This document shows positions 3,961-59,262 of a DNA stretch of 64,000 bases, piece after piece. A model generated the notes under the pieces. The model worked only from the letters and a program-made list of their open reading frames with translations. It searched no databases and was not told the origin of the DNA. The translations under genes were made by a program, and so were the position numbers. Position 1 is the first letter of the stretch. Every line of letters begins with the position of its first letter. Source of the stretch: Vicinamibacterales bacterium (GTDB taxonomy: Bacteria > Acidobacteriota > Vicinamibacteria > Vicinamibacterales > UBA8438); assembly GCA_036012905.1 (NCBI GenBank), contig DASCQF010000139.1, forward strand, positions 31,273 to 95,272, read 5' to 3'.

Positions 3961-4770
3961 CTACGATATGCTCAACAGCTCGATATCGAAAACAAGCGTC
4001 GCGCCCGGCAGAATCACAGTATTGGGAGACCCGCTCGAACCGAATGCGAGCTCGGGCGGGATGATGAGGCGCCGTTGGCCACCCACGCGCATACCGAGGA
4101 GGCCCTGATCCCAGCCGTCAATGACGCCACCGGCGCCGATCAAGACCGTCGACGGGCTGCCGCTCGTCGACTCGAACTGCGTACCCTTGTTGTCGGGCTT
4201 GGTCGGGTTGTAGAGCCATCCCGTGAACTCCACCGACAACGTGTTGCCGCTGACCACCTCGGCCCCTGTTCCGACGACGAGGTCGATGATGGTGAACGCC
4301 GGGGCCTCGTCAACACGCAGCAACTCAATATCGAACACGAGAGACGCATTCGCCGGAACACCGGTCGGCCCAAGCGTGCCGAAACCGTGGGTGGGTGGAA
4401 GAACGAGACGCCGCTCGCCCCCCACACGCATTCCGACCAATCCCAGATCCCACCCCGGAATCACCTGTCCCACACCCAGCACGATCGTGATAGGGGTCCC
4501 TTCCGTCGTTTCGAACTGCGTGCCCTTGTTGTCGGGCAGCGTATCGTCATACAACCATCCCGTGAATTCAACGGTCAGGAAATTTCCGTTCGCGGCCGCA
4601 ATACCGGCGCCGACAAGCAGGTCCGTGATGGTGAAATCCGGAATCGAGGCCGGGTCCGTGGTATCGGTCGGTGCAGTCGGGTTATTGGAGCCCCCGCACC
4701 CCGTCAGCAATGCCCCCGCTAACAGCAGGACTCCGACGGCGACGACAGCAGATTCTCTTGGCGGATTCAT
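3961..4770 (-). CDS. tandem FKBP-type peptidyl-prolyl isomerase lipoprotein
   Basis: The ATG at 4770 gives MNPPRESAVVAVGVLLLAGALLTGC (lipobox). Two copies of the FKBP core (VEFTGWLY..PDNKGTQFE..GWDxGLxGMRVGGxRRLxxPP..LVFDIELL). Confidence 0.9.
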   Translation of the reverse strand: MNPPRESAVVAVGVLLLAGALLTGCGGSNNPTAPTDTTDPASIPDFTITDLLVGAGIAAANGNFLTVEFTGWLYDDTLPDNKGTQFETTEGTPITIVLGVGQVIPGWDLGLVGMRVGGERRLVLPPTHGFGTLGPTGVPANASLVFDIELLRVDEAPAFTIIDLVVGTGAEVVSGNTLSVEFTGWLYNPTKPDNKGTQFESTSGSPSTVLIGAGGVIDGWDQGLLGMRVGGQRRLIIPPELAFGSSGSPNTVILPGATLVFDIELLSIS

Positions 4771-4959: not shown

Positions 4960-5601
4960 ATGAGAATCTTGCAGCTGCTCTGCGCCGCAACCCTGCTCTG
5001 TCTGCTGAGCGCCTCGCCGGCGCTCGCCCAGGCCTCCGACATGACGTTCTTCCTGACCAGCGTCGGCTCCGGCAGCGGCGCCGACCTGGGCGCGCTGGCC
5101 GGCGCCGATGCGCATTGCCAGTCACTGGCGGCGGCGGTCGGCGGGGGCAACAAGACGTGGCGTGCCTATCTCAGCACCACCGGCTCAGGCGGCGTCAACG
5201 CCCGCGACCGCATTGGCTCTGGTCCGTGGCAGAACGTTGCGGGTGTCGTCGTCGCGCGAGACCTCGACCAGCTCCACTACGAGAACAACCTGACCAAGGA
5301 AACGGTGCTCAACGAGAAGGGTGAGATGACCAATGGGCGCGGCGACGACCCGAACCAGCACGACATCCTGACCGGCTCCAATCTCGACGGGACCGCCTCG
5401 TCAGACACGGACGCGTGCAGCAACTGGACCTCGAGCGCCGACGGCGGCACCGGAAGCGCCATGGTCGGACACTTCGACCGCACCGGCGGCGGCGCAAACC
5501 CGAACTCCTGGAACTCGGCGCATGGTTCGCGCGGATGCAGCCAGGCCAATCTGATCGCGACCGGCGGCAACGGATACTTCTACTGTTTCGCTGCCAACTG
5601 A
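4960..5601 (+). CDS. secreted four-Cys protein resembling the endostatin / C-type-lectin-like fold
   Basis: AAGGAGAA lies upstream of the ATG at 4960. Signal peptide MRILQLLCAATLLCLLSASPALAQA. Hand alignment to the collagen XVIII endostatin domain from memory: GADAHCQSLAAAVG..WRAYLST vs [28 protein letters not shown] vs YCETWRT; YFYCFAAN vs YIVLCIEN. All four Cys are in equivalent positions. Confidence 0.6.
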   Translation: MRILQLLCAATLLCLLSASPALAQASDMTFFLTSVGSGSGADLGALAGADAHCQSLAAAVGGGNKTWRAYLSTTGSGGVNARDRIGSGPWQNVAGVVVARDLDQLHYENNLTKETVLNEKGEMTNGRGDDPNQHDILTGSNLDGTASSDTDACSNWTSSADGGTGSAMVGHFDRTGGGANPNSWNSAHGSRGCSQANLIATGGNGYFYCFAAN

Positions 5602-5799: not shown

Positions 5800-7740
5800 A
5801 TGGAATCGGCGCGCGGTCCGCTCCGCTTTGTGCCGGCGGCCGTGCTGCTACTCGCCTCGGCCGGACTCGGGGTCGCCTTGGCGACCACCGGAGCCCGTGA
5901 CGTCCCCGAATCGGAAATCGACACCCGGCCCATCCAAGTGGACGGCGACGGGTATGTCTCCTCCGACACCTGCAAGGCCTGTCACCCCGCAGAGTACGAC
6001 AGTTGGTTTGGGTCGTTTCACCGCACGATGACCCAGGTCGCCACACCGGAGACGGTGCGTGCCGATTTCGACCGGGTACGCGTCGAGAACACCCATGGAC
6101 AACCGATGTTACTCGAACGCGACGGAGACGAGTACTGGGCGGAATTTGACGACCCGGGGTGGGAAGGAGCCGAATCTGACCGTCCCCGTATCACGAGACG
6201 GGTGGTGATGATCACCGGGTCTCATCACCAGAACATCTACTGGTACGAAACGGGGCACGACCGCGGATTGAACGTACTCCCGAGCGTGTATCTCATCGAA
6301 GAGCAGCGGTGGGCCTCGCGTAGCGCCGTCGTGCTGCACCCGCCCCAGCAGTCGCTCGCCATGTTGAACGGGCACTGGAACGCGATCTGCATCGTGTGTC
6401 ACACCACCCAGGGCAAGACGGCGTTCGACACGCCCTACCGGTCCGAAGCGTTCGAGCTGCAGACGATCGACACGACCGTGGCGGAGTTCGGCATCGCCTG
6501 CGAGTCCTGTCATGGACCGGCCGAGGCCCATATCGCCGCAAACCGGAATCCCCTCCGTCGCTATGGCCTCCACCTCGCTGGAGACGACGACCCCACCATC
6601 GTGCAACCGAGCCTCCTCGACCCCCGGCGCTCGTCACAGGTGTGCGGGCAATGCCACAGCGTCTGGGAGTTCTATGACGCGGCAGACGAACGCCACGCCA
6701 ACAGTGCCGGGCTGCCATATCGACCGGGAGACGAGCTGCGGGACACACGCTTTATCGCGCAGCCCTCGGTGGATAGGAGCTCGACAGAGATCCGCACTTT
6801 GGTGAATGACGACCCGGACTTCGTGCGCGGCTCCTTTTGGCCTGACGGCATGGTCCGGGTGTCTGGACGAGAATACAACGGCCTGATCGACTCTCCCTGC
6901 TTCCGCGATGCCACCGAACCTGACCACACGCTGACCTGCTTTTCATGTCACACGCTGCACAAGACCGCCGAGGACCCACGACCGGTGTCGGAGTGGGCCG
7001 ACACGCACCAGGTGTCGACCGACATGGCGGGCAACGACGCCTGTCTGCAGTGTCACGAGCCGATGCGGGGCGACGTCACGGCCCACACGCGGCATCCGGC
7101 GGAGTCGTCCGGCAGCAGCTGCTACAACTGCCACATGCCCTACACCGCATACGGGCTCCTCAAGACGGAGCGGAGTCACACCATCAGCAGCCCGACCGCC
7201 ACCGAAACGGCCGAGCTCGGCCGCCCGAATGCCTGCAACCTCTGTCATCTCGACAGAACCGTGGGTTGGACCGCCGACAAGCTGCACGACTGGTATGGCA
7301 CACCGGTGCCAGAGCTGGGCGGTGCGAACCGCACCGTTGCGGCTTCGCTGCTCTGGATACTGAGCGGTGACGCCGGTCTGCGCGCGCTCACCGCTCAGAG
7401 CATGGGGTGGGCGCCGGCGCAGGAGGCCTCCGGCACCAGCTGGATGGTGCCGCATCTGGGCGAGGCGCTTGGCGACCGCTACGACGCCGTGCGGTTCATC
7501 GCCGCGCGGTCGCTACGGAGCCTCCCTGGGTACGCCGACATGGCGTATGACTTCGACGGCCCAGAACAGGACCGGGTCGACGTGGCCGTGCGGGTACTGA
7601 GTGCATGGCGGGCCAGTCCGGCCTCGCGGCAACGGCGCGACGCCGAGCTTCTCGTCGATGCCGACGGCGAGCTCCGGGTCGACGCCATGCGACAGCTCTT
7701 CGACCAGCGCGACAGGCGCCCGCTGTTCCTCAGGGAATGA
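5800..7740 (+). CDS. octaheme c-type cytochrome with C-terminal helical-repeat domain
   Basis: Eight CXXCH motifs in the translation (CKACH, CIVCH, CESCH, CGQCH, CFSCH, CLQCH, CYNCH, CNLCH). The ATG at 5800 gives signal/anchor MESARGPLRFVPAAVLLLASAGLGVALA (alternative ATG at 5749). The last ~150 aa are HEAT/ARM-like. Confidence 0.8.
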   Translation: MESARGPLRFVPAAVLLLASAGLGVALATTGARDVPESEIDTRPIQVDGDGYVSSDTCKACHPAEYDSWFGSFHRTMTQVATPETVRADFDRVRVENTHGQPMLLERDGDEYWAEFDDPGWEGAESDRPRITRRVVMITGSHHQNIYWYETGHDRGLNVLPSVYLIEEQRWASRSAVVLHPPQQSLAMLNGHWNAICIVCHTTQGKTAFDTPYRSEAFELQTIDTTVAEFGIACESCHGPAEAHIAANRNPLRRYGLHLAGDDDPTIVQPSLLDPRRSSQVCGQCHSVWEFYDAADERHANSAGLPYRPGDELRDTRFIAQPSVDRSSTEIRTLVNDDPDFVRGSFWPDGMVRVSGREYNGLIDSPCFRDATEPDHTLTCFSCHTLHKTAEDPRPVSEWADTHQVSTDMAGNDACLQCHEPMRGDVTAHTRHPAESSGSSCYNCHMPYTAYGLLKTERSHTISSPTATETAELGRPNACNLCHLDRTVGWTADKLHDWYGTPVPELGGANRTVAASLLWILSGDAGLRALTAQSMGWAPAQEASGTSWMVPHLGEALGDRYDAVRFIAARSLRSLPGYADMAYDFDGPEQDRVDVAVRVLSAWRASPASRQRRDAELLVDADGELRVDAMRQLFDQRDRRPLFLRE

Positions 7741-12389: not shown

Positions 12390-12451
12390 GGCGTGTGCAC
12401 TGAGAAGGCAGGAGGGCTTCGCCGGCTTCGTTTCAAGATCAGGGTCACGTT

Positions 12452-13849
12452 GTGAGTTCTGTCTTCATCGACCTGACGTATCTGCTGGCGTCGGTCCTCT
12501 TCATTCGCGGGATCAAGGGGCTGACGCACCCGCGGACCGCCGTCCGCGGCAACCTGCTGGGCGCGGCCGGGATGTTGCTGGCGGTCGTGGCAACGCTCGC
12601 TGACCGCCAGGTGCTCGGGGCCGGGGCACAGGGCCTGGGACTGATGCTCGCCGGGGTCCTGATCGGGTCCGCCATCGGCGCCACCCTCGCCCTCAAGATC
12701 CAGCTGACAGCAATTCCCCAGATGGTGGCGTTGCTCAACGCGTTCGGGGGCGGCGCCTCGGCGCTCATCGCAGGCGCAGTGCTGGCCGAGACGCGCGACC
12801 CGACCATGCAGACCGCGGTGGCAACGGTTGCCTCTGGTATCATCGGGTCGGTCACCTTCTGGGGCAGTCTGGTCGCCTTCGACAAGCTGCAAGGGCTGCT
12901 GCTCCCGGACCACCCGGTACACTTCCCGGCGCAACAGGTGGTCAACGCCCTGCTCGGCCTCACGGCGCTGGGGCTGGGAGTCTGGGTCGTGAGTGATCCA
13001 GGCAATCTCACCGCGTTCGGTCTCCTTGTGGCAGTCGGCTCGTTGCTGGGGTTCCTGCTGACGATCCCGATCGGCGGCGCCGACATGCCTGTCGCGATCG
13101 CGTTGCTCAATTCTTACTCCGGACTTGCGGCGGCCTCGACCGGCTTTGTCCTGAACAACAACATCCTCATCATCACCGGCTCACTGGTCGGCGCCTCGGG
13201 GCTCATCCTCACCCGGATCATGTGCAAGGCGATGAACCGGTCGTTGATGAACGTGCTGATGGGCGCGATCGGGCCGGGCAGCGGCCCAACCGTCGGCGCC
13301 GACGAGGTCTACGCCGGTCGGGTCAAGAGCACCTCTCCCGAAGAGGTGGCGATGCTGTTCGACGGCGCGCGACGGGTCGTCATCGTCCCCGGGTACGGCA
13401 TGGCCGTCGCCCAGGCGCAGCACCAGGTGCGGGACCTGGCCAACCTGCTGGAGTCGCAGGGCACCGAAGTGGAGTTCGCCATCCACCCGGTGGCGGGACG
13501 GATGCCGGGTCACATGAACGTACTGCTGGCCGAGGCGGACGTCGACTACGACAAGCTGCGAGAGATGGACGACATCAACCCCACATTCGAGCAGACCGAT
13601 GTGACGCTCGTCATCGGCGCCAACGACATTGTCAACCCGGTCGCCCGCACCGACCCCTCCAGCCCGATCGCCGGCATGCCGATTCTCGATGTCGACAAAT
13701 CGCGCACCGTCGTCGTCGTCAAGCGCAGCCTGTCGCCCGGATTCGCCGGCATCCCGAACCCGCTGTTTGCCACCGACAACACGCTGATGCTATTCGCCGA
13801 CGGGAAGAAGGCGGTCCTCGACCTCATCACCGCCGTCAAAGAGGGATAG
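12452..13849 (+). CDS. pntB: NAD(P) transhydrogenase subunit beta
   Basis: GTG start. N-terminal multi-TM region plus a C-terminal NADP(H) domain (VVIVPGYGMAVAQAQH, HPVAGRMPGHMNVLLAEA, GANDIVNP). Confidence 0.9.
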   Translation: MSSVFIDLTYLLASVLFIRGIKGLTHPRTAVRGNLLGAAGMLLAVVATLADRQVLGAGAQGLGLMLAGVLIGSAIGATLALKIQLTAIPQMVALLNAFGGGASALIAGAVLAETRDPTMQTAVATVASGIIGSVTFWGSLVAFDKLQGLLLPDHPVHFPAQQVVNALLGLTALGLGVWVVSDPGNLTAFGLLVAVGSLLGFLLTIPIGGADMPVAIALLNSYSGLAAASTGFVLNNNILIITGSLVGASGLILTRIMCKAMNRSLMNVLMGAIGPGSGPTVGADEVYAGRVKSTSPEEVAMLFDGARRVVIVPGYGMAVAQAQHQVRDLANLLESQGTEVEFAIHPVAGRMPGHMNVLLAEADVDYDKLREMDDINPTFEQTDVTLVIGANDIVNPVARTDPSSPIAGMPILDVDKSRTVVVVKRSLSPGFAGIPNPLFATDNTLMLFADGKKAVLDLITAVKEG

Positions 13850-25225: not shown

Positions 25226-26365
25226 TCAAAAAGATGGAAACGCGTCACGCGGAATTCCCGGGACTACACGCAGAGCGTTTTCATAGTACACCTTCCGCAG
25301 GATGTCGTCCGACAGCCCCATGCCATAGAGCTTCCAGAACGCGTGATACCGCCGGTAGTAGTCGAAATACTCGTCCCGCGTCTCGAACGTCCGCCAGTAG
25401 TAGGGGAACTCATCCGCCGCATAGGAGTCCTTGCCAAACAGCACTCGGTCGGCGTACTCGGCAAAGAAGGCGCCCGCCGCGAGCGGCTGCCGCCCGAGCT
25501 CATAGAGGATGGCGCCGGTCCCGACATACACGTTGGGAAGCCGATCGAGCATGGCACCGAGCCGACCGAGATCGTTCGCATGCCATCCCATATGGGCGGC
25601 GATGAAGCGGGTCTGTGGGTGTCGCGCAAACATCCGGTCCCGCTCGGCCATGATCGCCTCGAAGCCCGGGTAACGGTCCGAGGGCAGACGGCGACCCGGC
25701 CGCACGATCAATTCGAGCCATCGCTCGTTGTAACGGTCGACCGGTTGGAAGAACTCGGCCGGCTCGCCCGTGTGGATCAGCACCGGGATATCCAGCCTCG
25801 TGCACATCTCCCAGACCGGGTCGAGCTCGGGATCGTCGACGCTGACCCGCTGTCCCTGTGCGTCACGCACGGTCAAGCCGAAATTCTTGAACAGCTTCAG
25901 CCCAACAGCGCCCGCGCCCACGTCCCGTTCGAGCTGGGTCGCTGCGCGCGTACCGAATCCCGGCCTCACGCCGCTGCTGAAATCCAGATTTGCGAAGAAG
26001 ACCATGCGGTTCGGATGAACACTGTTCTGGATTGCCTGGACCCCGCCTGCCAAGGTCGCGCCGGATCCGCCGCTCAGATTCACGAGCACCTGCAGGTTCA
26101 GCGCATCCATCTCGCCGACAATCGTGTTCCACCGCTCGCCCGAGAGCCCTGGTCGATGATGGCTGTGGACATCGACCACCGGAAACTTCGCCCTCGGCAC
26201 CGGGTGCTCTGGCACGACCAGGGTCGAGCGTGGCGTGTAGTCTTCGACCGTCAGCGACCGTTCATTCGCCGTCGACTGACCGCGCCGGTTCGTCTGCGCA
26301 GTCAGCGACACCGCCACACCGATCAAGGCGAGCGCACAGAATCCGACGATGCCGAGACGTGTCAT
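25226..26365 (-). CDS. amidohydrolase-2 (TIM-barrel metal hydrolase), secreted
   Basis: Track ORF 25226..26596. The ATG at 26365 is preceded by GGAGG and gives MTRLGIVGFCALALIGVAVSLTAQ. VVDVHSHH and IAAHMGWH metal-ligand motifs. Confidence 0.8.
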   Translation of the reverse strand: MTRLGIVGFCALALIGVAVSLTAQTNRRGQSTANERSLTVEDYTPRSTLVVPEHPVPRAKFPVVDVHSHHRPGLSGERWNTIVGEMDALNLQVLVNLSGGSGATLAGGVQAIQNSVHPNRMVFFANLDFSSGVRPGFGTRAATQLERDVGAGAVGLKLFKNFGLTVRDAQGQRVSVDDPELDPVWEMCTRLDIPVLIHTGEPAEFFQPVDRYNERWLELIVRPGRRLPSDRYPGFEAIMAERDRMFARHPQTRFIAAHMGWHANDLGRLGAMLDRLPNVYVGTGAILYELGRQPLAAGAFFAEYADRVLFGKDSYAADEFPYYWRTFETRDEYFDYYRRYHAFWKLYGMGLSDDILRKVYYENALRVVPGIPRDAFPSF

Positions 26366-26402: not shown

Positions 26403-26490
26403 AACGGCGCGCACGTGCGCGCCTCGCGGACGCGGAGTGGGGCCTTGGGGTCCCCGCGCAGCGTCCGCGGGGGCTCGGGGCACAGCCCCG
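26403..26490. repeat. left arm of the inverted repeat flanking rnpB
   Basis: Reverse complement of 27015-27103, with about 7 mismatches in the first ~66 nt by hand alignment. Contains the 18-bp perfect palindrome GGCGCGCACGTGCGCGCC (26406-26423) and hairpins CGCGGACGC...GCGTCCGCG and CGGGGCACAGCCCCG. Confidence 0.85.
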
Positions 26491-26504
26491 TCAAGAAAAA
26501 GGAT

Positions 26505-26963
26505 CCGCCGCAGAGGAACGATAAGCCGAATTCTGTTCCCGGCGCTACGCCCGAGGGCGCGGAACTGGGTGACGACCATTCCTCTAGCCCCGCCATTGCT
26601 GGCAGGATCCAGCGACCTACCCGGAAGCTTCGGACGGGCCGTCCTGATAACGCTTCCCTATTTGGTCTTGCTCCGTGCGGGGTTTAGCCTGCCATCCACC
26701 TTACGGCGAACGCGGTGCGCTCTTACCGCACCTTTTCACCCTTACCCTTCGGCTCACCCGGCTGACGCCGGGCTTGCTCAGGGCAGGCCCGAGGGCCTGT
26801 CTCGAGCTTCGTCGAGAGGCGGTATGTTTTCTGTGCCACTTTCCTTCAGGTCGCCCTGACCGGGGATTACCCGGCGCACTGCCCTCTGGAGTTCGGACTT
26901 TCCTCCCCGAACGGCGCCACGTCGTGACACCGCACGCGGCGGTCGTCTGTCCCTCTACGGCGG
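26505..26963 (-). ncRNA. rnpB: RNase P RNA, bacterial type A
   Basis: The minus strand reads ...GGGGAGGAAAGTCCGAACTCCAGAGGGCAG..., ...GGGTAAGGGTGAAAAGGTGCGGTAAGAGCGCACCGCG..., ...GGAGCAAGACCAAATAGGG... and ...ACAGAATTCGGCTTATCG. These match the universally conserved blocks of E. coli M1 RNA. The P1 helix is formed by CCGCCGTAGAGGGA (5') and TTCCTCTGCGGCGG (3'). A U5 run follows the 3' end. Ends are approximate to a few nt. Confidence 0.95.
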
Positions 26964-27014
26964 ATTGTCAAAGATCAGCTGGGGCTCCGCCCCAGACCCC
27001 GGGGCATCTTCACG

Positions 27015-27103
27015 CGGGGCGTTGCCCCGAACCCGACGCGGGTGCTACGCAGGGACCCCAAGGCCCCGCTCCGCGCCCGCGGGGCGCGCACGTGCGCGCC
27101 GTT
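27015..27103. repeat. right arm of the inverted repeat flanking rnpB
   Basis: Mirror copy of 26403-26490. The same 18-bp palindrome GGCGCGCACGTGCGCGCC sits at 27083-27100, with hairpin CGGGGCGTTGCCCCG at 27015-27029. Confidence 0.85.
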
Positions 27104-27123: not shown

Positions 27124-27196
27124 GGCGAAGCCACTCTGCTTCTTCTGACTTCTGCCTCCTGACTTCTGACTTCTGACTTCTGACTTCTGACTCCTC
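27124..27196 (+). repeat. dispersed intergenic element: GGCGAAGCC box plus (TTCTGAC)n heptamer tract, copy 1
   Basis: GGCGAAGCC at 27124-27132, then a 10-nt spacer (27133-27142). Seven heptamers follow at 27143-27191: TTCTGAC TTCTGCC TCCTGAC TTCTGAC x4. The tract sits just 3' of the stop codon of the minus-strand regulator gene. Confidence 0.9.
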
Positions 27197-27207
27197 GGGA
27201 ATACCGT

Positions 27208-28578
27208 CTACGCGTCCTGTTCCTGTTTGATCTGATACTGCTCCAGCTTTTTGTACAAATTGCTACGCGGCGTGTCGATCACCTCGGCGGTCTTCGAGAT
27301 GTTCCAGCTGTGTTCGCGCAGCTTCTCCACCAGAAAGGCCCGCTCGGCGACTTCTTTGAACTCTCTCAGGGTGCCCGCCAGATTCGCCGCCACCTCCCCC
27401 GCACCGCCCCGTGCGTCGCTCGGCAAGACCTCACGGGCTTCGGCCGTGTCAATCGTCTCCCCCGGTGTCATCACCATCAGGCGCTCCACCGTATTCCGAA
27501 GCTCCCGCACGTTTCCTCGCCACCGCTCGCGTGTCATCAGATCAATCGCCGCCGGCGTGAACCGCTTGGGCCTGAAGTTGTTTTCCGTGCAAAAGAGATC
27601 GGTGAAGTGCGCGACAAGCCGCGAGATATCCTCACCGCGGTCACGCAACGGTGGCACCTGGATCGGAATGACGCTGAGCCGAAAATACAGATCCTCTCGA
27701 AAGGTGCCATTGTCGATGGCCTCTTCCAGGTTGCGGTTGGTTGCGGCAATCACGCGGGCATCGACTTTGATTGTCCGCGCCGACCCAAGCCGCTCGACCT
27801 CGCCCTCCTGAAGCACCCGGAGCACCTTCGCCTGGGTGCGGAGACTCATGTCGCCGACCTCGTCGAGAAAAATTGTTCCGCGGTCGGCCTGCTCGAACTT
27901 GCCAATCTGCTTCTGCGTCGCGCCGGTGAACGCGCCCCGCTCGTGCCCAAACAGCTCCGACTCGATGAGCTCCTCGGGAAGCGCGGCGCAGTTGACCTGC
28001 ACGAAGCGCTCTTTGCCACGGCGACTGTTCCGGTGAATTGCGCGGGCGACGAGCTCCTTTCCCACTCCGCTCTCACCCTGGATCAGCACCGTGCTGTTGG
28101 TCGGAGCCGCGCGACCAATCGCGTCGGCGACCTGCACGAGCGCTGGACTCTCGCCGACCATCTCGTGCCGAACCTCGGCAAGCTTACGATACGAAGTGAC
28201 CTCTGTCTTGAGCCGACGTTGCTCCAGCGCATTCCGAATGTTCAGGAGGATGTCACCGGTCTCTATCGGTTTGGTCAGACAGGAGAATGCCCCCAGCTTG
28301 GTCGCTTCGCGACCGGTCTCCATCGTGCCGTGACCGGAGATGATGACGACCTCGACAGACTCGTCGATCTCCCGAATGCGTTTCAGCACCTCCAACCCGT
28401 CCATCCCCGGCATCTTTATGTCCAGAAACACGACATCCGGGCTCTCCCGTTCGACCATGCCGAGCCCTTCCTGCCCGCTCCGAGCAAGGAGGCAGTCATG
28501 CCCGGCGTAGTCGATAGCCTGCTTCATCGTGCTCCGAATGGCCTCTTCGTCGTCAACAACCAGTACTCGCGCGTTCAT
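27208..28578 (-). CDS. sigma-54-dependent response regulator (NtrC family)
   Basis: REC domain (VLVVDDE...DVVFLDIKMPGMDG), AAA+ sigma-54 interaction domain (GESGVGKE, GAFTGA, ELFGHERGAFTGA, RFDERV-type region) and a C-terminal HTH (NISKTAEVIDTPRSNLYKKL). Confidence 0.9.
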   Translation of the reverse strand: MNARVLVVDDEEAIRSTMKQAIDYAGHDCLLARSGQEGLGMVERESPDVVFLDIKMPGMDGLEVLKRIREIDESVEVVIISGHGTMETGREATKLGAFSCLTKPIETGDILLNIRNALEQRRLKTEVTSYRKLAEVRHEMVGESPALVQVADAIGRAAPTNSTVLIQGESGVGKELVARAIHRNSRRGKERFVQVNCAALPEELIESELFGHERGAFTGATQKQIGKFEQADRGTIFLDEVGDMSLRTQAKVLRVLQEGEVERLGSARTIKVDARVIAATNRNLEEAIDNGTFREDLYFRLSVIPIQVPPLRDRGEDISRLVAHFTDLFCTENNFRPKRFTPAAIDLMTRERWRGNVRELRNTVERLMVMTPGETIDTAEAREVLPSDARGGAGEVAANLAGTLREFKEVAERAFLVEKLREHSWNISKTAEVIDTPRSNLYKKLEQYQIKQEQDA

Positions 28579-28592
28579 AAATCATGATCCAT

Positions 28593-31729
<3,137 letters not shown>

Positions 31730-34648: not shown

Positions 34649-35860
34649 CTAGACGGGGCTGCGCCCCGTGCCCCCGATATCCTGATACGCCTTGGCCGCG
34701 TCCGCGTGAACCTCCTTCACCGGCACACCGTGTTGTTCGGCCAGCCGCGCGCAATCGTCGAACTCCGGTGCCACGTTGACCACCACCGCTTCACGCCAGG
34801 CCACCTTGCACCGCACCTCGCCGAAGCGGGTCGACACCGGCACCAGCTCGCGCCGCAATGTCTCTCGGGTGACATCCATGTGCCGCACGCCGATGGTCGT
34901 CGACTCGCGAAACAGGGTCGCGCTGACCGCCTCACGTCGTTCCCGCGGGACCAGCACGGTGACGTGCGTGCCAGGCCGGTTCTTCTTCATCTGCACCGGG
35001 GTGTAGAACACGTCGACGGCGCCGGCGGCATACAGCCGATCCATCAGCACGCCGAATATCTGCGGGTTCATGTCGTCGATCTCGCACTCGACGACTGCCA
35101 GCCGTTCCACGCCGCCAGTGCCTGTCGCCTCCCCGGCCAGGACCCGCAGCACGTTCGGGTGCCCCGCGGGATCGCGAGTGCCGGCGCCATACCCAATCTT
35201 CTCGATCCGCATCGGCGGCAGCGGGCCGTATTCGCCGGCAAACTCCGTCACGAGCAACGCCCCGGTTGGTGTCAGCATCTCTCCCGGTGGCCCCGCGGCA
35301 TACACCGGCACGCCAGAGACCAACGACGCGGTTGCGGGCGCCGGCACAGGTAGCGTGCCGTGTTCGCACGTGACCGTCCCGCTGCCCACGTTGATCGGCG
35401 AGGCCACGACCCTATCGGCGCCGAACCACTCCAGGGCGAATACCCCCCCGACGATGTCAATGATCGAGTCGAGCGCACCCACTTCGTGCAGGTGCACCTT
35501 CTCGACCGGCATCTGGTGAATCGTCGCTTCGGTTTCCGCAAGTCGCCGGAATAAGCGATTCGCCCGCTGTTTCGACGAGTCCGACAGTGCCGACTGGTCC
35601 ACCAGCTTCGTGATGCCCGGGAGGTGACGGTGCCGGTGAGTGCCGCCCACCTCGCCGGTCGTCTCGGTGACCGTGAACTTCGTCGCCCCGATGCCCGACC
35701 GACTGACTCGCTCCGCCGACACCCTGCACTCGTCTTCGAGGGCAAGACTGCCCAGCGCCGCGCGCAACGTATCGAACGGCAGCCCGGCATCGAGCAGCGC
35801 GCCGATCAGCATGTCGCCCGACGCGCCCGAGTAACAGTCTAAATACAGAATTCGACCCAT
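34649..35860 (-). CDS. larC: LarC-family nickel-insertion protein (DUF111)
   Basis: MGRILYLDCYSGASGDMLIGALLDAG... and HLHEVGALDSIIDIVG are the characteristic LarC/DUF111 motifs. Its stop is 2 nt from the metG start. Confidence 0.85.
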   Translation of the reverse strand: MGRILYLDCYSGASGDMLIGALLDAGLPFDTLRAALGSLALEDECRVSAERVSRSGIGATKFTVTETTGEVGGTHRHRHLPGITKLVDQSALSDSSKQRANRLFRRLAETEATIHQMPVEKVHLHEVGALDSIIDIVGGVFALEWFGADRVVASPINVGSGTVTCEHGTLPVPAPATASLVSGVPVYAAGPPGEMLTPTGALLVTEFAGEYGPLPPMRIEKIGYGAGTRDPAGHPNVLRVLAGEATGTGGVERLAVVECEIDDMNPQIFGVLMDRLYAAGAVDVFYTPVQMKKNRPGTHVTVLVPRERREAVSATLFRESTTIGVRHMDVTRETLRRELVPVSTRFGEVRCKVAWREAVVVNVAPEFDDCARLAEQHGVPVKEVHADAAKAYQDIGGTGRSPV

Positions 35861-37624: not shown

Positions 37625-37680
37625 TTCAGAAGTCAGAAGTCAGGAGGTAGAAGTCAGAAGGAAGCCGGTGGGCTGCCGCC
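37625..37680 (-). repeat. heptamer-tract element, copy 2a (inverted orientation)
   Basis: The plus strand reads TCAGAA GTCAGAA GTCAGGA GGTAGAA GTCAGAA GGAAGCC...GGCTGCCGCC. Its reverse complement aligns with copy 1 (AGAAGTCAGAAGTCAGGAGG[C/T]AGAAGTCAGAAG). It lies 17-72 nt upstream of the dapF start codon. Confidence 0.85.
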
Positions 37681-37734: not shown

Positions 37735-37785
37735 GGCGAAGCCCTCCAGTGATCTTCTGACTCCTGACTTCTACCTTCTGGCTCC
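37735..37785 (+). repeat. heptamer-tract element, copy 2b
   Basis: GGCGAAGCC (37735-37743), an 11-nt spacer, then TTCTGAC TCCTGAC TTCTACC TTCTGGC. It abuts the stop codon (37786-37788) of the minus-strand OM-barrel gene, the same position and orientation relative to a stop codon as copy 1. Confidence 0.85.
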
Positions 37786-38640
37786 TCACGGACTCAACGG
37801 ACTCTCGAACACCCAGGTCAGGCCACCCGTGACCCCCACCCTAGGGTCCCGCGACGTGAACCCGGTGAACAGGCCACCGTCGAATCGTACGGTCCCGCGC
37901 GTATAGCGCAACCCAAAAGTCATCGTGGCGCGGGTCTCGGTTCCCGGAGGCGGCGCGCCGCGGCGCGTGCTCGCGCGGCCGTTGATCTCCCCGACGATCT
38001 CCGCTCCCGGGGCAAACGCTCGCGCCAGTGAAAAGCCATAGGTCAAGACGTCGTTTTGCCGGTCGCCGCGCGTCGGATCCGAGAGAATGCCGAGCCCGAC
38101 GTTGCCGACCACGCGAACCGACTCGATCGTCTTGCCGACGAGTAGGGACTGAAAGAAATCGATCGTGTCGAGCCCGAGGCCGCTTTCGTTGCTGGCATTG
38201 GGCAGCCGCGTCGCGAACCGCAGGGCGATCGCGGGCATACGCGCCCCCTCCCCGACAATCTTCACCTTGGCCCCGACAACAATGTCAGCGAAGCTGCTGC
38301 TGGTGTCTCCGGTGACGTCGAGCATGCTCGATAGTGGAGCATCGAATCGATCCGAGATATTCAATCGGCTGAACGAAATGCCGTCGATCTGAATTTCGGC
38401 ATTCGGGCCCATCCCGAAGCTGAGCCCGAGTTGAGGTCCGCGCAGCAGGTTCCCCTCGAGGCCGGAGACCGTAAAGGTCTCGTCCCAGGCCCGATCGATG
38501 CCCGCTTCAAGCAGTATCAGTCCGTCGCCGATCGCTTCCGGGTCCTCGGTCAGCAATGGCCGCTGCTGGGCGGCGACCAGACCGGCTATCAGCCAGATCC
38601 CGAGTACCCAACATCCCACCCTGATCACACGTCGCGTCAT
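37786..38640 (-). CDS. outer-membrane beta-barrel protein (MetA/transporter-like)
   Basis: Signal peptide MTRRVIRVGCWVLGIWLIAGLVAAQ. Alternating beta-strand pattern throughout. Beta-signal-like GGLTWVF is followed by a 6-aa tail, ESPLSP. Confidence 0.65.
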   Translation of the reverse strand: MTRRVIRVGCWVLGIWLIAGLVAAQQRPLLTEDPEAIGDGLILLEAGIDRAWDETFTVSGLEGNLLRGPQLGLSFGMGPNAEIQIDGISFSRLNISDRFDAPLSSMLDVTGDTSSSFADIVVGAKVKIVGEGARMPAIALRFATRLPNASNESGLGLDTIDFFQSLLVGKTIESVRVVGNVGLGILSDPTRGDRQNDVLTYGFSLARAFAPGAEIVGEINGRASTRRGAPPPGTETRATMTFGLRYTRGTVRFDGGLFTGFTSRDPRVGVTGGLTWVFESPLSP

Positions 38641-51370: not shown

Positions 51371-51490
51371 TCGATCGGCATCAGATATCATTAAGCGTTA
51401 ACGTGAATCTCAACCAGAGCTCGTGAAGACACAACCGGTACGGGCGACGCGCGGATGCTTCCACCGTGCTTTCGCCGGAGGATAGCCGTC

Positions 51491-52714
51491 TTGAAGCTCA
51501 ACAAACTCGTGCTCGTTTTCTTGTGTGTCGCCGGGGTTACCCTGTTCTCGTTCGGGTGCGGCGACGACTCGTCACCGTCGTCTCCGGCAGCCCCCAGCGC
51601 GTTCCCAGCGGCGCTGGCCAGCACGGACTCAGCGGTTGGGGTCTCGGTGCGGAACGCGATCGACACGACGTCGCTCGGCACCGACACGGTTGACTTGAAG
51701 GCGACGGCGGCCACGCCCCTGAGCCCGATCAACAACGTCGAGGTTGACGATTTCACCCCAACGCTTACCGCCGCGAATGCGAGCGGCACGTTCAGAGACG
51801 CGACCTTCTCCTACGTGTTCGCGGTCTTCAACGTCACCGGCGGCGGATCGACATTGGTCGAGACCGCCACCAGGGCGCAGGGCGCGACGTCGACGTCGTT
51901 TCAGATCCAGGCGCCGCTCGAAGGCGATTCGAGCTACCAGTGGCGCGTGCGTCCGTTCCTGGATGGCGCATTTGGACCGTGGTCGACGCTCGCCTCGTTC
52001 ACGACGCCGCCGTCCGTCGTGATCGGATTGCCGGTTCCGACTGCCCCGATCAACGGCGCGACGGTGTCCGATCTTCGTCCGGATTTCAACGTCACCAACG
52101 GCAGCGTCGAGGGCGATGCCGGAACGGTGATCTACCAGATTCAGGTGGCACTCGACAGTGGCTTCTCCAATATCGTCACGGAGGAAGGGACGGAGCTACG
52201 CGCTCAGGGTGACACGAACATACACCTTCGGGCCGATCTGGCCGCAGAAACGCACTATTTCTGGCGCGTCCGGGGACGCAATGACGGCCAGGGCAAGACC
52301 GGGTTCCTGCCCATCGGTCAAGCGACGTCGCAAGTGATAGGTGATTGGAGCACGACGCAGGACTTCTTCACACCGGCGGCGCTCCCGCCCGGACCGACGC
52401 CCTTCTGTTGTCCACCGCCCAATCGGCTGGAGATCGTGCAGCAGGTCGGAGACGAAACCGGCTATCCGGACTCGGGCATCAGCGTGACCGACTTCACCCA
52501 GGCTGTGGCCGAACGTCTCAACCAGGAGGATCCCAATTGGGGACGCCGGATCAACGGCAACGGAAATATCGGAAAGGATACGATCGGTTACCGGGTCGAC
52601 GGGTCGGACGACAATCCGTACAAGGTCGACATTGTCGCGGGCGCGACCAGCTCCAGCCCTGTGCTCCACTGGGCCGGGGAGGGGCGACTCGGAGGCTCGT
52701 GGGTCGCGCCCTGA
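51491..52714 (+). CDS. lipoprotein B: two YxWRxR modules plus a conserved CCPPPNRLEIV C-terminal domain
   Basis: Track ORF starts at ATG 51455, but GGAGGA lies 8 nt upstream of the TTG at 51491. That start gives (M)KLNKLVLVFLCVAGVTLFSFGC, a lipoprotein signal. The C-terminal 102 aa are about 81 percent identical to the paralog at 54882..56411. Confidence 0.75.
   Translation: MKLNKLVLVFLCVAGVTLFSFGCGDDSSPSSPAAPSAFPAALASTDSAVGVSVRNAIDTTSLGTDTVDLKATAATPLSPINNVEVDDFTPTLTAANASGTFRDATFSYVFAVFNVTGGGSTLVETATRAQGATSTSFQIQAPLEGDSSYQWRVRPFLDGAFGPWSTLASFTTPPSVVIGLPVPTAPINGATVSDLRPDFNVTNGSVEGDAGTVIYQIQVALDSGFSNIVTEEGTELRAQGDTNIHLRADLAAETHYFWRVRGRNDGQGKTGFLPIGQATSQVIGDWSTTQDFFTPAALPPGPTPFCCPPPNRLEIVQQVGDETGYPDSGISVTDFTQAVAERLNQEDPNWGRRINGNGNIGKDTIGYRVDGSDDNPYKVDIVAGATSSSPVLHWAGEGRLGGSWVAP
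52403..52714 (+). repeat. arm 1 of a ~310-bp inverted DNA repeat (3' end of the lipoprotein B gene)
   Basis: Reverse complement of 54882-55193. The core CAGGAGGATCCCAAyTGGGGrCGCCGGATCAACGGCAACGGAAAyATCGGmAAGGAyACGATCGGyTACCGGGTCGA...GACAATCCGTACAAGGTCGACAT differs at only a few third-codon positions. Confidence 0.85.
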
Positions 52715-52872
52715 CGGGGCGTGCGGTGGCGGGTCGCTGACTGAGTGAGGTATCCCCGAGCGCGCACCGCTGCGGTCCCTGCCGTCGAGGCTCATCCGTC
52801 TCCGTTCGGCGCAGTCGGATGGTCCCGGATAGACATGCGGATCGTCGTTCCTCCTGACAGACCCGGCTCCAG

Positions 52873-54717: not shown

Positions 54718-54881
54718 GCCACCTGCCTGCCGTTCGATGGCCGTGCATTCCGACGCGTTGACGTCACCAGGCTTACACGAAGCGGACACCCACCGGGATA
54801 GCGCTCGGCCTCCTTCTGGCCAACGCCAGCCCGCGTCGGGCGTGCGACCTCACGCCTGACATCCGCGGCCGCCGGCTGCCC

Positions 54882-55193
54882 TCAGGGCACGATCCACGTC
54901 CCGCCGATCTGTCCCTCCTCCTCCCAGTGCGGCTGGGGACTGGAGCCACTCGCGCCCGCAACGATGTCGACCTTGTACGGATTGTCGTCCGAGCCATCGA
55001 CCCGGTAGCCGATCGTGTCCTTGCCGATGTTTCCGTTGCCGTTGATCCGGCGCCCCCAGTTGGGATCCTCCTGATGCAGACGCTCTGCGACGGCCTGTGT
55101 GTAGTCGAACACGCTGATGCCTGAATTCGGATACCCGGTCTCCTCCGCAACCTGTAGAACAATCTCCAGCCGGTTGGGTGGTGGACAGCAGCC
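54882..55193 (-). repeat. arm 2 of a ~310-bp inverted DNA repeat (3' end of the lipoprotein C gene)
   Basis: See 52403-52714. The two arms face each other across 2167 bp. Confidence 0.85.
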
Positions 55194-56411
55194 CGGCGTC
55201 GGAGCCGGCCCGCTCGGCGGCGGCGGTGGCGACGGCTCCGGATTCGCGGGCGTTCGAAAGCTCTGCGACGCCGTCCACGGGCTCACGGTCGTCCCGTCGC
55301 CAGCGAACACGCGCCAGTAGAGGGTGCTGTCAGCCGGTAGCAGCGGAGACGTGACGGCAGTCGTACCGCCCGCAGACATCGAGGCCTCGAAGACGGTGAC
55401 GACGCTGTCGACTGCCGGGTCAGTGCCCACGTGGAAGAACAGGCGCACCGGGCCGGCCGGCCCGATCACCAGGCCGTTGGCAACAGTGAAGAGAGGCGGG
55501 TTGGTCGGTGCGAGCGCGCCGCTGATGGGCGACAAGAGCGTCGGCGCGCCAAGCGACACCGGCTGTGGAGGAGCCCGAAACGTGGCCGCGTCCGACCAGG
55601 GCCCCGTAACGGTTCCTTCCTTGCCTTGGGCGATCGCTCTGCTGCGCCAGTAGTGCGGCGTATTCCACGCCAGATCGCCGGTCGTGGCGGTGGTCGCCAC
55701 AGCACCAGCCGGGACCGTCATCGAAGCGACAATGCTGCCGAACCCGGGATCGGTCGAGACCTCGAACTTGCAGGCTACGGACGCCGCCGGTCCCTCAATC
55801 GTCGAATTGGCCGCGACCAGCGTCGCCTTCCGCGTGGCGACCACAACACCACCAAGAGGCGCGGTCGGCGTCGGTTTTCCCACCACAAGCGGTGTGAAGA
55901 CCTCGAATGCCGCGCTGGCCGAGTACGGCCCGGTATTGGCGCCGTCAAGGGCACGGACCCTCCAGTAGTAAGTCTGCTCGGGGTCGAGCTGGGCCGCCAA
56001 TTCGTAGACGTCGGTCGCCTCTCCGCTGGAGACGACCTTTTCCGAAGTCTCCGCCACCTCGGCAAACGCGTCGTCGCGGCCGATCTGAACCTCGTACCAG
56101 AACGGCCGAACGCTGTTCGACGTCGCACCGTTGAACGTCACCTGAATCGGCTGGTCCGCCACCTTGATCAGGAAGCCATCCCTGGGAGCAAGCGCTGTTG
56201 GTGCCGAAATGGTCACACCAACGATGGGGCCGGCGATGGACGGGCTCAGCGGATTACTGCTCTTTTCGCTGTCGCACCCGACGAAACCGGCCACCGAGGC
56301 GAGCAGGACAACGGACCTGGCGGCAGATCTACAATTCTGTGGCGATGTGGGTCCATTGAAGCGGGAACGATTTGGGGTCTCCCGCCATTGCATGTTGGTC
56401 ATTGTGAGCAA
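54882..56411 (-). CDS. lipoprotein C: three YxWRxR modules plus a conserved CCPPPNRLEIV C-terminal domain
   Basis: Lipobox VVLLASVAGFVGC. Start at 56411, 56402 or 56393. Three ~110-aa modules end in YYWRVRA..GP.S....F.TP. The C-terminal domain is paralogous to that of 51491..52714. Confidence 0.8.
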   Translation of the reverse strand: MLTMTNMQWRETPNRSRFNGPTSPQNCRSAARSVVLLASVAGFVGCDSEKSSNPLSPSIAGPIVGVTISAPTALAPRDGFLIKVADQPIQVTFNGATSNSVRPFWYEVQIGRDDAFAEVAETSEKVVSSGEATDVYELAAQLDPEQTYYWRVRALDGANTGPYSASAAFEVFTPLVVGKPTPTAPLGGVVVATRKATLVAANSTIEGPAASVACKFEVSTDPGFGSIVASMTVPAGAVATTATTGDLAWNTPHYWRSRAIAQGKEGTVTGPWSDAATFRAPPQPVSLGAPTLLSPISGALAPTNPPLFTVANGLVIGPAGPVRLFFHVGTDPAVDSVVTVFEASMSAGGTTAVTSPLLPADSTLYWRVFAGDGTTVSPWTASQSFRTPANPEPSPPPPPSGPAPTPGCCPPPNRLEIVLQVAEETGYPNSGISVFDYTQAVAERLHQEDPNWGRRINGNGNIGKDTIGYRVDGSDDNPYKVDIVAGASGSSPQPHWEEEGQIGGTWIVP

Positions 56412-57502: not shown

Positions 57503-59128
57503 TTGGTACGGGATCTTCGGACACTGGCCCACACCCACTTCGACCTGCTGGTCGTCGGTGCCGGCATCTATGGCGCCGCCATAGCGTGGGATGCAACCCA
57601 GCGCGGACTCTCGGTCGCGCTCATCGACCGCGGCGACTTCGGCGGTGGCACCTCCGCCAACAGCATGAAGACGGTGCACGGCGGTGTGCGGGCGCTTCAA
57701 ACCGGCAGTCTTGCCGAACTCCGGTTGTTTGTGCGAGAGCGCCGCGCGTTGTCGCGGATCGCGCCGCATCTGGTCCACCCGTTACCGTTCATCATTCCGA
57801 CCTACGGTGAGCTTACCCGCAGCCGGCTGATCATGCGCGCGGCGTTCGAATTCTACGATCTCCTGGCCCGAGACCGTAATAATTCTCTCGACCGCTCACT
57901 GCATCTGCCGCCCAGCCGCCTCGTCTCACGCAAAGAGTGTATCGCACTGAACCCGGCTATCGCCCCAGAGGGGATCACGGGCGGCATCGTCTGGCACGAC
58001 TGCCAGATGCACAACGCTGATCGAGTGGTGCTGTCGTTCGTGATGTCGGCAGTCGCCATCGGCGCCGTGGCTTCCAACTACGTCGAGGCGACCGGTTGGC
58101 TACGAGACGGTGACCGTGTCGTCGGCGTCAAGGTGGCGGACCGTCTCAACGGCAACAGCTTCGACATCCGCGCAACGTTGGTCGTCAACGCGGCCGGACC
58201 CTGGGGCGAGGCGCTGAACGCGACCCTGTCGCAAGCGACCTCGTCAAGCCGCCCGCCAGGGTTCTCGAAGGCGATGAACCTGGTCACCCGCTCCATCACG
58301 CAAGACCACGCGCTGGGCGGCCTGGCGGGATCGCGATACCTGTTCGTGGCGCCGTGGCACGGTGTCTCTGTCGTCGGCACCAGTGAAGACCCGTTCGATG
58401 GCCAGGCGGACTCGTTGCGCGTGCGCGAGACCGACGTGTCGGCGTTTCTGCGGGAGGTGAACCGGGCGTTTCCGGCGGTCGGGCTCAGGCTGGACGACGT
58501 CCGGCTGGTTCATCGCGGTCTGCTCCCCACTGCCGACCACTCGGGTCGACTGCTGCTCAAGCAGAGCGTCGTTCGCGATCACCGCGCCGACGGCGCGCCA
58601 GGGCTAATGAGCGTCATCGGCGTCCGCTACACCACCGCACGTGGAACCGCCGAGCGCGCTACCGACACCGCATTCTCGATCCTCGGGCGGACGCCACCTG
58701 CGTGTCGAACCACCGACATCCCGCTGTTGGGCGGTGACATTCCGAACATGGCAGCCTTCGTCGCCGAAGCGACCGAAGAGACCGCAGATGCAGTCGACGC
58801 CCTTACAGGGAAACGCCTGGCGTGTAGCTACGGCTCGCGGTATCACGACGTTGTGCAGACAATGAAAGACGACCCTTCCCTGGTGGCACCCCTCTCCGAC
58901 AGCTGCCCAATCACGCGCGGGGAAATCCTGCACGCCGTTCGCCACGAGATGGCGGTCCGACTCGCTGACGCCGTGCTACGACGTACCGAAGCCGGCTCAG
59001 CTGGGCATCCCGGCCGAGCCGCCATGGTAGAGGCCGCGCGGGTCATGGGTGCAGAGATAGGTTGGACCGACGACCGACGCGAACGGGAAGTGGAGCACGC
59101 CGAACAGGACTACCGTTTGGACCCGTAA
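57503..59128 (+). CDS. glpD: FAD-dependent glycerol-3-phosphate dehydrogenase/oxidase
   Basis: TTG start. FDLLVVGAGIYGAAIAWDATQRGLSVALIDRGDFGGGTSANSMKTVHGGVR matches the GlpD dinucleotide-binding N-terminus. A C-terminal alpha-helical domain is present. Confidence 0.75.
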   Translation: MVRDLRTLAHTHFDLLVVGAGIYGAAIAWDATQRGLSVALIDRGDFGGGTSANSMKTVHGGVRALQTGSLAELRLFVRERRALSRIAPHLVHPLPFIIPTYGELTRSRLIMRAAFEFYDLLARDRNNSLDRSLHLPPSRLVSRKECIALNPAIAPEGITGGIVWHDCQMHNADRVVLSFVMSAVAIGAVASNYVEATGWLRDGDRVVGVKVADRLNGNSFDIRATLVVNAAGPWGEALNATLSQATSSSRPPGFSKAMNLVTRSITQDHALGGLAGSRYLFVAPWHGVSVVGTSEDPFDGQADSLRVRETDVSAFLREVNRAFPAVGLRLDDVRLVHRGLLPTADHSGRLLLKQSVVRDHRADGAPGLMSVIGVRYTTARGTAERATDTAFSILGRTPPACRTTDIPLLGGDIPNMAAFVAEATEETADAVDALTGKRLACSYGSRYHDVVQTMKDDPSLVAPLSDSCPITRGEILHAVRHEMAVRLADAVLRRTEAGSAGHPGRAAMVEAARVMGAEIGWTDDRREREVEHAEQDYRLDP

Positions 59129-59262
59129 CGCGAGCCCGACGGCCCCTGCCAAGGTTCAATGCACAATATCGGCAATTACTGGCACTGCCAAGTTGCCGAC
59201 GAACGATGTCGGTAGGGCAACGTTTCGAGGGTGCCGGTGTCCGTGCGTGGCCCGTCAACGCC

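Follow-up and report, generated by a model that had tools for sequence, protein, structure and literature searches.

The inverted repeat around rnpB in a Vicinamibacterales bacterium probably consists of two copies of a dispersed, hairpin-rich intergenic repeat

In a Vicinamibacterales bacterium, the RNase P RNA gene (rnpB) is bracketed by two inverted copies of a hairpin-rich sequence, here called the left and right arms. The locus was analysed within a 64,000-nucleotide stretch of contig DASCQF010000139.1 (GenBank assembly GCA_036012905.1), referred to as the window, whose positions are used throughout. The minus strand carries every gene next to rnpB, in the order ligA, ntrX, a heptamer array, the right arm, rnpB, the left arm, a gene for an Amidohydro_2 protein and an epimerase gene. 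An initial annotation of the window had placed rnpB between the arms at 26505-26963; a match to the Rfam model confirms this place and supplies the strand (minus), which that annotation lacked. The match well exceeds the gathering score of 100 and covers the full model (positions 1-367), and rnpB of relatives scores 284-296 bits. The features of the locus are as follows.

28593-30689, minus strand: ligA
27208-28578, minus strand: ntrX, for an NtrX-like sigma-54 response regulator
27135-27200, minus strand: heptamer array (TCAGAAG)n, in the gap that separates the ntrX stop codon from the right arm
27017-27102, minus strand: right arm, an A-type repeat copy (nhmmer family profile 27102-27017, E = 2.1e-15; three-hairpin fold)
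27083-27100, no strand assigned: terminal 18-nt perfect palindrome of the right arm, GGCGCGCACGTGCGCGCC (exact match)
26979-27002, minus strand: B-type tail remnant (CCGGGGTCTGGGGCGGAGCCCCAG), between the right arm and rnpB (comparison of upstream regions)
26959-26974, minus strand: motif TCTTTGACAATCCGCC, directly 5' of rnpB (upstream sequences of 10 relatives)
26506-26958, minus strand: rnpB, RNase P RNA, bacterial class A (Rfam RF00010, 287.8 bits)
26493-26502, minus strand: U-rich tract (CCUUUUUCUU), right after the extended P1 helix (sequence and downstream flanks of relatives)
26406-26423, no strand assigned: terminal 18-nt perfect palindrome of the left arm (module PAL), GGCGCGCACGTGCGCGCC (exact match)
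26404-26489, plus strand: left arm, an A-type repeat copy (nhmmer family profile 26404-26488, E = 6.6e-15; three-hairpin fold)
25226-26365, minus strand: gene for the Amidohydro_2 protein (amidohydrolase)

The arms form an inverted repeat of about 88 nt, as first annotated. A repeat finder aligns 26403-26480 with 27026-27103 without gaps (78 nt, 85% complementary), and 26403-26490 matches the reverse complement of 27015-27103 at 86.5% over 89 columns with one gap (blastn E = 2.7e-23). Arm against arm, identity is 86%, with 12 differences. A chance origin of this similarity was ruled out by the E value and by the membership of both arms in a repeat family. The 18-nt palindrome annotated at the outer end of each arm is exact, and GGCGCGCACGTGCGCGCC occurs nowhere else in the window, even at 3 mismatches. 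The hairpins proposed within the arms were recovered on separate folding, which gives three in each: the palindrome, a middle hairpin of ~45 nt and a GGGGC-NNN-GCCCC hairpin, hereafter hairpin 3. In the left arm the structured forward strand is the plus strand, antisense to rnpB, and the hairpin-3 end points towards the 3' end of rnpB; in the right arm it is the minus strand, the sense strand for ntrX and rnpB, and the hairpin-3 end again points towards rnpB. The 24-nt remnant at 26979-27002 matches the tail of a full B-type copy that lies upstream of rnpB in a sister lineage (locus L021), and upstream of rnpB the window has an A-type copy and then a 24-nt B-type tail. The hairpin of this tail (26995-26979) scored terminator-like. 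A short sequence, CCAGTA, is common to both sides 13-16 nt outside the arms, and no target-site duplication was found at the window arm ends.

Both arms belong to a family that is dispersed over many loci. In total, 104 copies were recovered at 77 loci, with rnpB at 9 of these and no rnpB at the other 68. An iterated nhmmer profile detected 36 copies in the window and the fetched loci; within the window it found none besides the two arms, and a 23-nt match at 34654-34676 proved to be a solitary hairpin close to the end of a gene. When 185,579 species genomes were scanned with the 20-mer ACGGCGCGCACGTGCGCGCC as pattern, 88 loci were returned, most of them single chance matches in unrelated high-GC taxa with nothing beyond the palindrome. 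Full-length copies were present at about 20 of them, in metagenome-assembled genomes (MAGs) of Acidobacteria/Vicinamibacterales, including at least 13 copies at 10 loci in MAG B71T1B8 and 4 copies at 3 loci in MAG SZUA-1123; among these carrier loci, rnpB occurs only at L021. The window's own species gave no match to the pattern in the genome collection. A metagenome scan with a slightly longer pattern returned 67 loci, of which 49 hold true copies (68 in all), with rnpB only at L133 and L161, both from a SZUA-1123-like lineage. Many metagenome matches lie at contig ends, and a contig of the window's own species (L003) ends inside the palindrome of the left arm, as expected for a multi-copy repeat. 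On the metagenome contig L158, a copy at 12440-12527 lies near a region ~80% identical to window positions 58029-59137, where the window has no copy, which is another presence/absence difference.

The genes that flank the copies are unrelated to one another and include aldehyde dehydrogenase/ABC transporter, molybdopterin oxidoreductase/Fe-S subunit, cdsA/dxr and CopC/CopC pairs and tRNA-Pro, with one copy 14 nt upstream of tRNA-Pro. The host clade of the family is marine Vicinamibacterales-like Acidobacteria. An Rfam search of the arms' region at E <= 1 returned only rnpB and a chance small RNA match at 14.9 bits, and plasmid sequences gave no match to the arms. We found no description of the family in the literature searched, and the REP (repetitive extragenic palindrome) papers covered made no mention of the clade; the family appears to have gone undescribed so far.

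Within this family, the window arms are not each other's closest members. The copies nearest to the left arm lie at unrelated loci and are 89-92% identical to it. In rankings of 91 copies by closeness to each arm, the opposite arm comes 20th and 9th, with 8-19 closer copies elsewhere. Since 29% of 4,186 family pairs are at least 86% identical, the 86% identity between the arms is ordinary.

The unit is ~86 nt long and is made up of the 18-nt palindrome, the ~45-nt middle hairpin and the terminal GGGGC-NNN-GCCCC hairpin with an A-type or a B-type tail. The two types agree in the palindrome and at the apex of the middle hairpin and differ in their 3' half; hybrid copies (for example L075_1959) and partial modules are also present. 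Palindrome variants (GCGCG-ACAAT-GCGCG and GCGCG-ACACC-GCGCG) retain the stem with different loops, and many copies have an extra small hairpin, GGCCG-loop-CGGCC, 5' of the palindrome. The A-type tail ends ...GCCCCGTC, often as CCCCGTC(TAR). Of 20 A-type copies, about 12 carry the CGTC tag, and others have CGAC or CGGC at that end. In B-type copies, which lack CGTC, the end is CCCCACGTAA or CCCCACCTAA. The unit is usually followed on its 3' side by GTCTAR, GACTRA or ACGTAA, and its two ends, ACGGCGCGC... and ...GCAGCCCC, are not inverted repeats of each other.

Away from rnpB, the copies form 56 solo occurrences, 10 doublets and 4 triplets, and all 14 multi-copy clusters are direct arrays, so that inverted pairing of copies is not seen there. 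Where both flanks were resolved, 18 clusters lie in sense and 9 in antisense between co-directional genes, 7 between convergent and 5 between divergent genes. The hairpin-3 end is the one closer to genes, with a median distance to the gene boundary of 12 nt against 59 nt for the palindrome end, start-codon distances being biased somewhat small by taking the first in-frame start after the repeat. Genes were called by the GC1>GC2 rule, and Pfam confirmed the calls in five test loci. In sense copies, the ATG of the downstream gene lies about 8-12 nt past the terminal hairpin, as in GCCCCGTCTAGATATG; such short gaps occur, among other copies, at L069 (5829-5838), L073 (6547-6558), L075 (2309-2322), L088 (4260-4270) and L092 (about 4145-4160). 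The gap contains no Shine-Dalgarno-like sequence, GGAG is present in the loop of B-type terminal hairpins, and the repeat may affect how translation of the next gene begins. A translated or coupled mini open reading frame, as a TAA or TAG after the unit and an ATG often 2-6 nt later might have indicated, was ruled out because no frame is kept: unit lengths range over 78-88 nt, and length modulo 3 is spread 17/35/22.

The structure of the unit is under selection. Covariation was tested with the three-hairpin model on 18 A-type copies (alignment A1). The model pairs 94% of cells, compared with 42-62% when the partners are slid, and five pairs have changed on both sides, of which the outer stem of the middle hairpin holds four. 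None of 500 shuffles reached the observed values on any measure. The initial suggestion that structure is selected is thereby upheld, and the A:T to G:C change read there as compensatory is real, being one of the covarying positions of the middle hairpin (columns 27/64: GC in 11 of the 18 copies, CG in 3, GU in 2 and AU in 1). Non-Watson-Crick cells are G·T in 30 cases and A·C in 4, and it is therefore the palindrome-first strand that keeps the structure, as RNA or single-stranded DNA. For transcription of ntrX and rnpB, the upstream arm of the window is in the structured orientation and the downstream arm in the opposite one.

The bracket around rnpB is not conserved. Relatives were represented by eight fetched syntenic loci (L005-L012) and a ninth, L021 from MAG SZUA-1123, taken from the genome scan. 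Three marine Acidobacteria MAGs (GCA_024711845.1, GCA_002726085.1 and GCA_002896275.2) hold an NtrX-like protein identical to that of the window, and homologs 76-91% identical lie on long contigs, some labelled Vicinamibacterales or Vicinamibacteraceae. In all of L005-L012 rnpB directly follows ntrX, and the ligA-ntrX-rnpB-(amidohydrolase)-epimerase synteny is retained with and without arms. The copies next to rnpB are distributed as follows.

L005: a 40-nt fragment upstream of rnpB; downstream, a copy without most of the palindrome
L007: none upstream; two tandem copies downstream
L011: none upstream; two tandem copies downstream
L009: none upstream; an array of three units downstream
L012: a full copy upstream; the terminal hairpin only downstream
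L008: none upstream; the terminal hairpin only downstream
L006: none upstream; none downstream
L010: none upstream; none downstream
L021: a B-type copy upstream; an A-type copy downstream

Of 10 syntenic relatives, the window and one sister lineage alone carry an arm on each side of rnpB. The arms of that lineage (L021; SZUA-1123-like) are of different subtypes and 74-78% alike, with only the self-complementary palindrome in common. In L012, a 95-nt copy cleanly interrupts the junction of GGCTGTGAC and CGACGAAG, which are contiguous in L006, L007, L009 and L011; the filled site shows at most an ambiguous 3-nt (T/G)AC duplication.

Just upstream of rnpB, relatives have a conserved block of ~110 nt that forms a long hairpin, GGTTTCCTGGCGAGGCGTCCGTCTGG ... 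CCAGGCGGGCGCCTCGCCAGGAAACC, with arms of 26 nt that are 85-88% complementary, and that ends at a TCTTTGACAAT motif. The block lies at 5419-5637 in L005, 5420-5541 in L007, 5431-5536 in L009, 5425-5532 in L011, 5528-5728 in L012 and about 7130-7205 in L006, and has no Rfam match at the gathering score. It is duplicated around the repeat fragment in L005 and split by the repeat insertion in L012. The window's genome lacks it, and repeat copies fill that space. Several relatives also have insertion sequence (IS) transposase genes near rnpB, of the DDE_Tnp_1, Transposase_20, DDE_3 and ISL3 types (L006 304-1611, 5467-6303 and 8749-9371; L009 6393-7472; L011 7249-8511), some of which replace or interrupt the amidohydrolase and epimerase genes. 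The neighbourhood of rnpB is therefore a site of frequent rearrangement.

To judge from its flanks, rnpB itself appears to be delimited inside the arms by TCTTTGACAATCCGCC, an extended P1 and the U-rich tract. The initial annotation had pointed to TTGACAAT directly 5' of the gene and to a U5 run 3' of it, and both are present, the run at 26496-26500. TCTTTGACAATCCGCC is identical in 9 of 10 relatives, L012 alone having one C-to-T change, and the consensus TCTTTGACAATCCG[C/T]C is kept in all. The last 7-8 nt of the motif are the 5' strand of the extended P1 and pair with GGCGGAU(U) at the 3' end, and the rest is an AU-rich single-stranded stretch, UCUUUGACAAU, which may serve as an atypical promoter or as a processing site. 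In the window, 7 bp can be added to P1 (26959-26965 with 26503-26509), and across the clade 6-8 bp. The extension runs past the ends of the Rfam model, which makes it likely that the mature RNA exceeds the model match in length. The repeat finder reports the corresponding inverted repeat (AATCCGCCGTAGAGGGAC/GTCCCTCTGCGGCGGATT, 16-18 nt) in all relatives except L005 and L007, and it is the only long-range repeat around rnpB that recurs in nearly every relative; one-sided P1 changes retain G·U pairs in L009 and L012.

U-richness after P1 is retained in most relatives, and P1 with the U tract resembles an intrinsic terminator ahead of the left arm, a role it may serve. A consensus scan found no sigma-70 promoter in front of rnpB. 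TTGACA as a -35 box was ruled out, as transcription would start inside P1; GACAAT is possible as a -10 box, but the conserved P1 extension would then be untranscribed. An autonomous rnpB that excludes both arms, raised as a caveat in the initial annotation, fits with the conservation of TCTTTGACAATCCG[C/T]C and with the location of the P1 extension and U tract inside the arms.

The arms are thus very probably two ordinary copies of a dispersed, non-coding, modular, hairpin-rich intergenic repeat whose behaviour is like that of REPs or of bacterial interspersed mosaic elements (BIMEs). This was one of three readings offered at the outset, and the many loci without rnpB, at unrelated intergenic sites, speak for it; occurrence of the arm sequence at such sites had been named as the sign of a generic REP, and it is what we observe. 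Several points weigh against this explanation. Seven of 10 related species have copies clustered at rnpB, the upstream insertions include at least three that seem independent (window/L021, L005 and L012), and inverted pairs less than 1 kb apart were seen only around rnpB. The rnpB flanks may be a preferred site, or the copies there may have a local role; the recurrence may come from an old resident copy seeding local additions or from a real site preference. Both collection scans required the exact palindrome, whose conservation in those loci is in part by construction, and the copy count for the window's own genome covers these 64 kb only. No transposase or mobilisation mechanism was identified, the gene for a REP-associated tyrosine transposase (RAYT, IS200/IS605-like) not having been looked for in the fetched loci. 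The last point is energetic: the arm-arm duplex is predicted at -195.7 kcal/mol, versus -115.3 kcal/mol for two self-folded arms (-55.7 and -59.6 kcal/mol folded alone).

These energies would suit a processing stalk, in which the arms pair into a ~80-bp stem around pre-RNase P RNA in read-through RNA from ligA and ntrX and are cut by RNase III. In the minimum free energy fold of the 718-nt read-through RNA, the arms are paired end to end and the stem continues into the extended P1 (-448.3 kcal/mol with the arms paired, -374 kcal/mol with long-range pairs forbidden). Because the search for a sigma-70-type promoter directly upstream of rnpB found none, co-transcription with ntrX is possible, and the bracket recurs in the SZUA-1123-like sister lineage (L021, L133 and L161). 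However, any two inverted repeat copies would give such a stem, so the energetics discriminate little, and most relatives have a different bracket or none: only downstream copies in L007, L009 and L011, none or remnants in L006, L008 and L010, and partial ones in L005 and L012. The window arms show no excess similarity over random family pairs, and the sister-lineage arms, being of different subtypes, have even less in common. Each arm is also predicted to fold on itself during transcription, and the U-rich tract after P1 precedes the downstream arm. We consider the stalk very improbable. A relative of it would make the repeat an RNA-level element and not selfish DNA, with inverted copies recruited as an rnpB stalk from which a double-strand-specific RNase excises pre-RNase P RNA. 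It is suggested by the strand-specific wobble pairs and by the position of the hairpin-3 end ~12 nt from start or stop codons, and we hold it to be highly improbable; if true, no pathway of this kind would have been described before for RNase P RNA.

That the arms are terminal inverted repeats of a composite mobile unit carrying rnpB, similar to a transposon or a miniature inverted-repeat transposable element (MITE), is hardly credible, even though they are inverted, have the perfect palindrome outermost and share CCAGTA on their outer sides. An essential, single-copy gene, rnpB keeps the same synteny in all relatives, with arms or without. The arm ends lack a target-site duplication, an individual element is not itself bounded by terminal inverted repeats, and at about 70 other sites the arms are single or in direct arrays. 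Local co-option fares better, although we still regard it as doubtful. Here the downstream copy would serve as a 3' protective or terminator-proximal hairpin for the RNase P RNA precursor, and the upstream copy would shield rnpB from transcription running on from ntrX. A GGGGC-NNN-GCCCC hairpin stands 14-16 nt past the 3' end of rnpB in 8 of 10 relatives and persists even in L008 and L012, where the copy is otherwise decayed, and the upstream B-tail hairpin followed by CUGAUCUUUG scores terminator-like. REPs, moreover, stabilise upstream RNA and affect termination (PMC3733652). Yet L006 and L010 lack the hairpin, and the orientation of the downstream copy turns the wobble pairs into A·C mismatches in rnpB-sense RNA.

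If the arms are ordinary copies of a dispersed repeat, the family would spread or recombine into intergenic spaces and amplify locally into direct arrays, with a start or stop codon usually some 8-12 nt from its hairpin-3 end. The copy just 3' of rnpB is probably old, as most relatives have it or its hairpin-3 remnant; in the lineage of the window, an A-type copy would have been added later upstream, beside an older B-type remnant. The arms are inverted relative to each other because both point the hairpin-3 end at rnpB, and the complementarity would be a by-product rather than a selected stalk. By analogy with known REPs, the structured strand may fold into stable hairpins as RNA, or as single-stranded DNA while being mobilised, and the hairpins could block exonucleases, damp read-through and modulate neighbouring genes.

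REP repeats whose palindromes carry a conserved GTAG or CGTC tetranucleotide at one end of the stem-loop have been surveyed (Di Nocera et al. 2013, PMC3733652). Like REPs, the present copies are short GC-rich stem-loops, multi-copy, intergenic and near gene ends; they are solo or clustered, vary in presence between close relatives and are plausibly transcribed. The CGTC sequence at the end of many A-type tails, absent from B-type tails, may be a further likeness. Unlike REPs, the unit is one of three distinct hairpins and not a single 20-40-nt palindrome, so that only its modules are REP-sized, and the copies shown so far number only tens per genome. The BIMEs of Escherichia coli and the BOX elements of Streptococcus pneumoniae are modular mosaic repeats, and the recombining modules and local arrays of the present family recall both, as illustrated by the hybrid L075_1959 and by the A-type copy and B-tail remnant of the window. 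REP orientation alternates in BIMEs, whereas all arrays are direct here, and there is no sequence similarity to BIMEs or BOX elements, which belong to a different host phylum.

Downstream of E. coli rnpB lies a tandem repeat of 3.5 x 113 bp, reportedly described by Reed and Altman in 1983. We confirmed 3.5 tandem 113-bp units overlapping the 3' end of rnpB in E. coli K-12 (NC_000913.3). That repeat likewise contains a hairpin and lies directly 3' of the RNase P RNA gene, but it is a tandem duplication, confined to that locus, of the 3' end of rnpB and its terminator; it is not dispersed and has no upstream partner. The RNase III stalks of 16S and 23S rRNA resemble the window in the long complementarity of their 5' and 3' flanks and in a predicted fold that encloses the RNA. 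They are conserved and co-vary across relatives, whereas the complementarity around rnpB is lineage-specific (86% in the window, 74-78% in the sister lineage, absent elsewhere) and comes from two dispersed copies. Unlike MITEs, the unit has no terminal inverted repeats, and the L012 duplication is at most an ambiguous 3 nt. The direct arrays between co-directional genes are reminiscent of mycobacterial interspersed repetitive units (MIRUs), from which the family differs in keeping no reading frame.

Other repeats occur in the window. The (TCAGAAG)n array between ntrX and the right arm belongs to a separate repeat family, distinct from the arms, with the variants TCAGGAG and GCAGAAG. Further heptamer arrays at 37626-37664 and 37754-37789 form an inverted pair ~90 nt apart in another intergenic region, and in L010 such arrays flank rnpB on both sides (about 5385-5420 and about 5940-5975), and GAAGC...GGCTTCGCC often comes after an array. 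Purines dominate the arrays, whose transcribed strand has many GGAG-like motifs. A 345-nt inverted repeat (52373-52717 and 54879-55223, 79% complementary) corresponds to the 3' ends of convergent open reading frames at 51455-52714 (plus) and 54882-56411 (minus), which are likely paralogous genes.

For the biology of rnpB, these results mean that the inverted repeat around the gene should not be taken as an RNase P maturation signal. The conserved TCTTTGACAATCCGCC and the P1 extended by 6-8 bp instead refine the likely ends of this RNA in the clade. The analysis also defines a structured, modular repeat family in uncultured marine Vicinamibacterales-like Acidobacteria, one that breaks metagenome assemblies. 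Its closeness to gene boundaries makes it a candidate for studying REP-like effects on RNA, and it is likewise a candidate for hairpin-guided single-stranded DNA transposition outside Proteobacteria.

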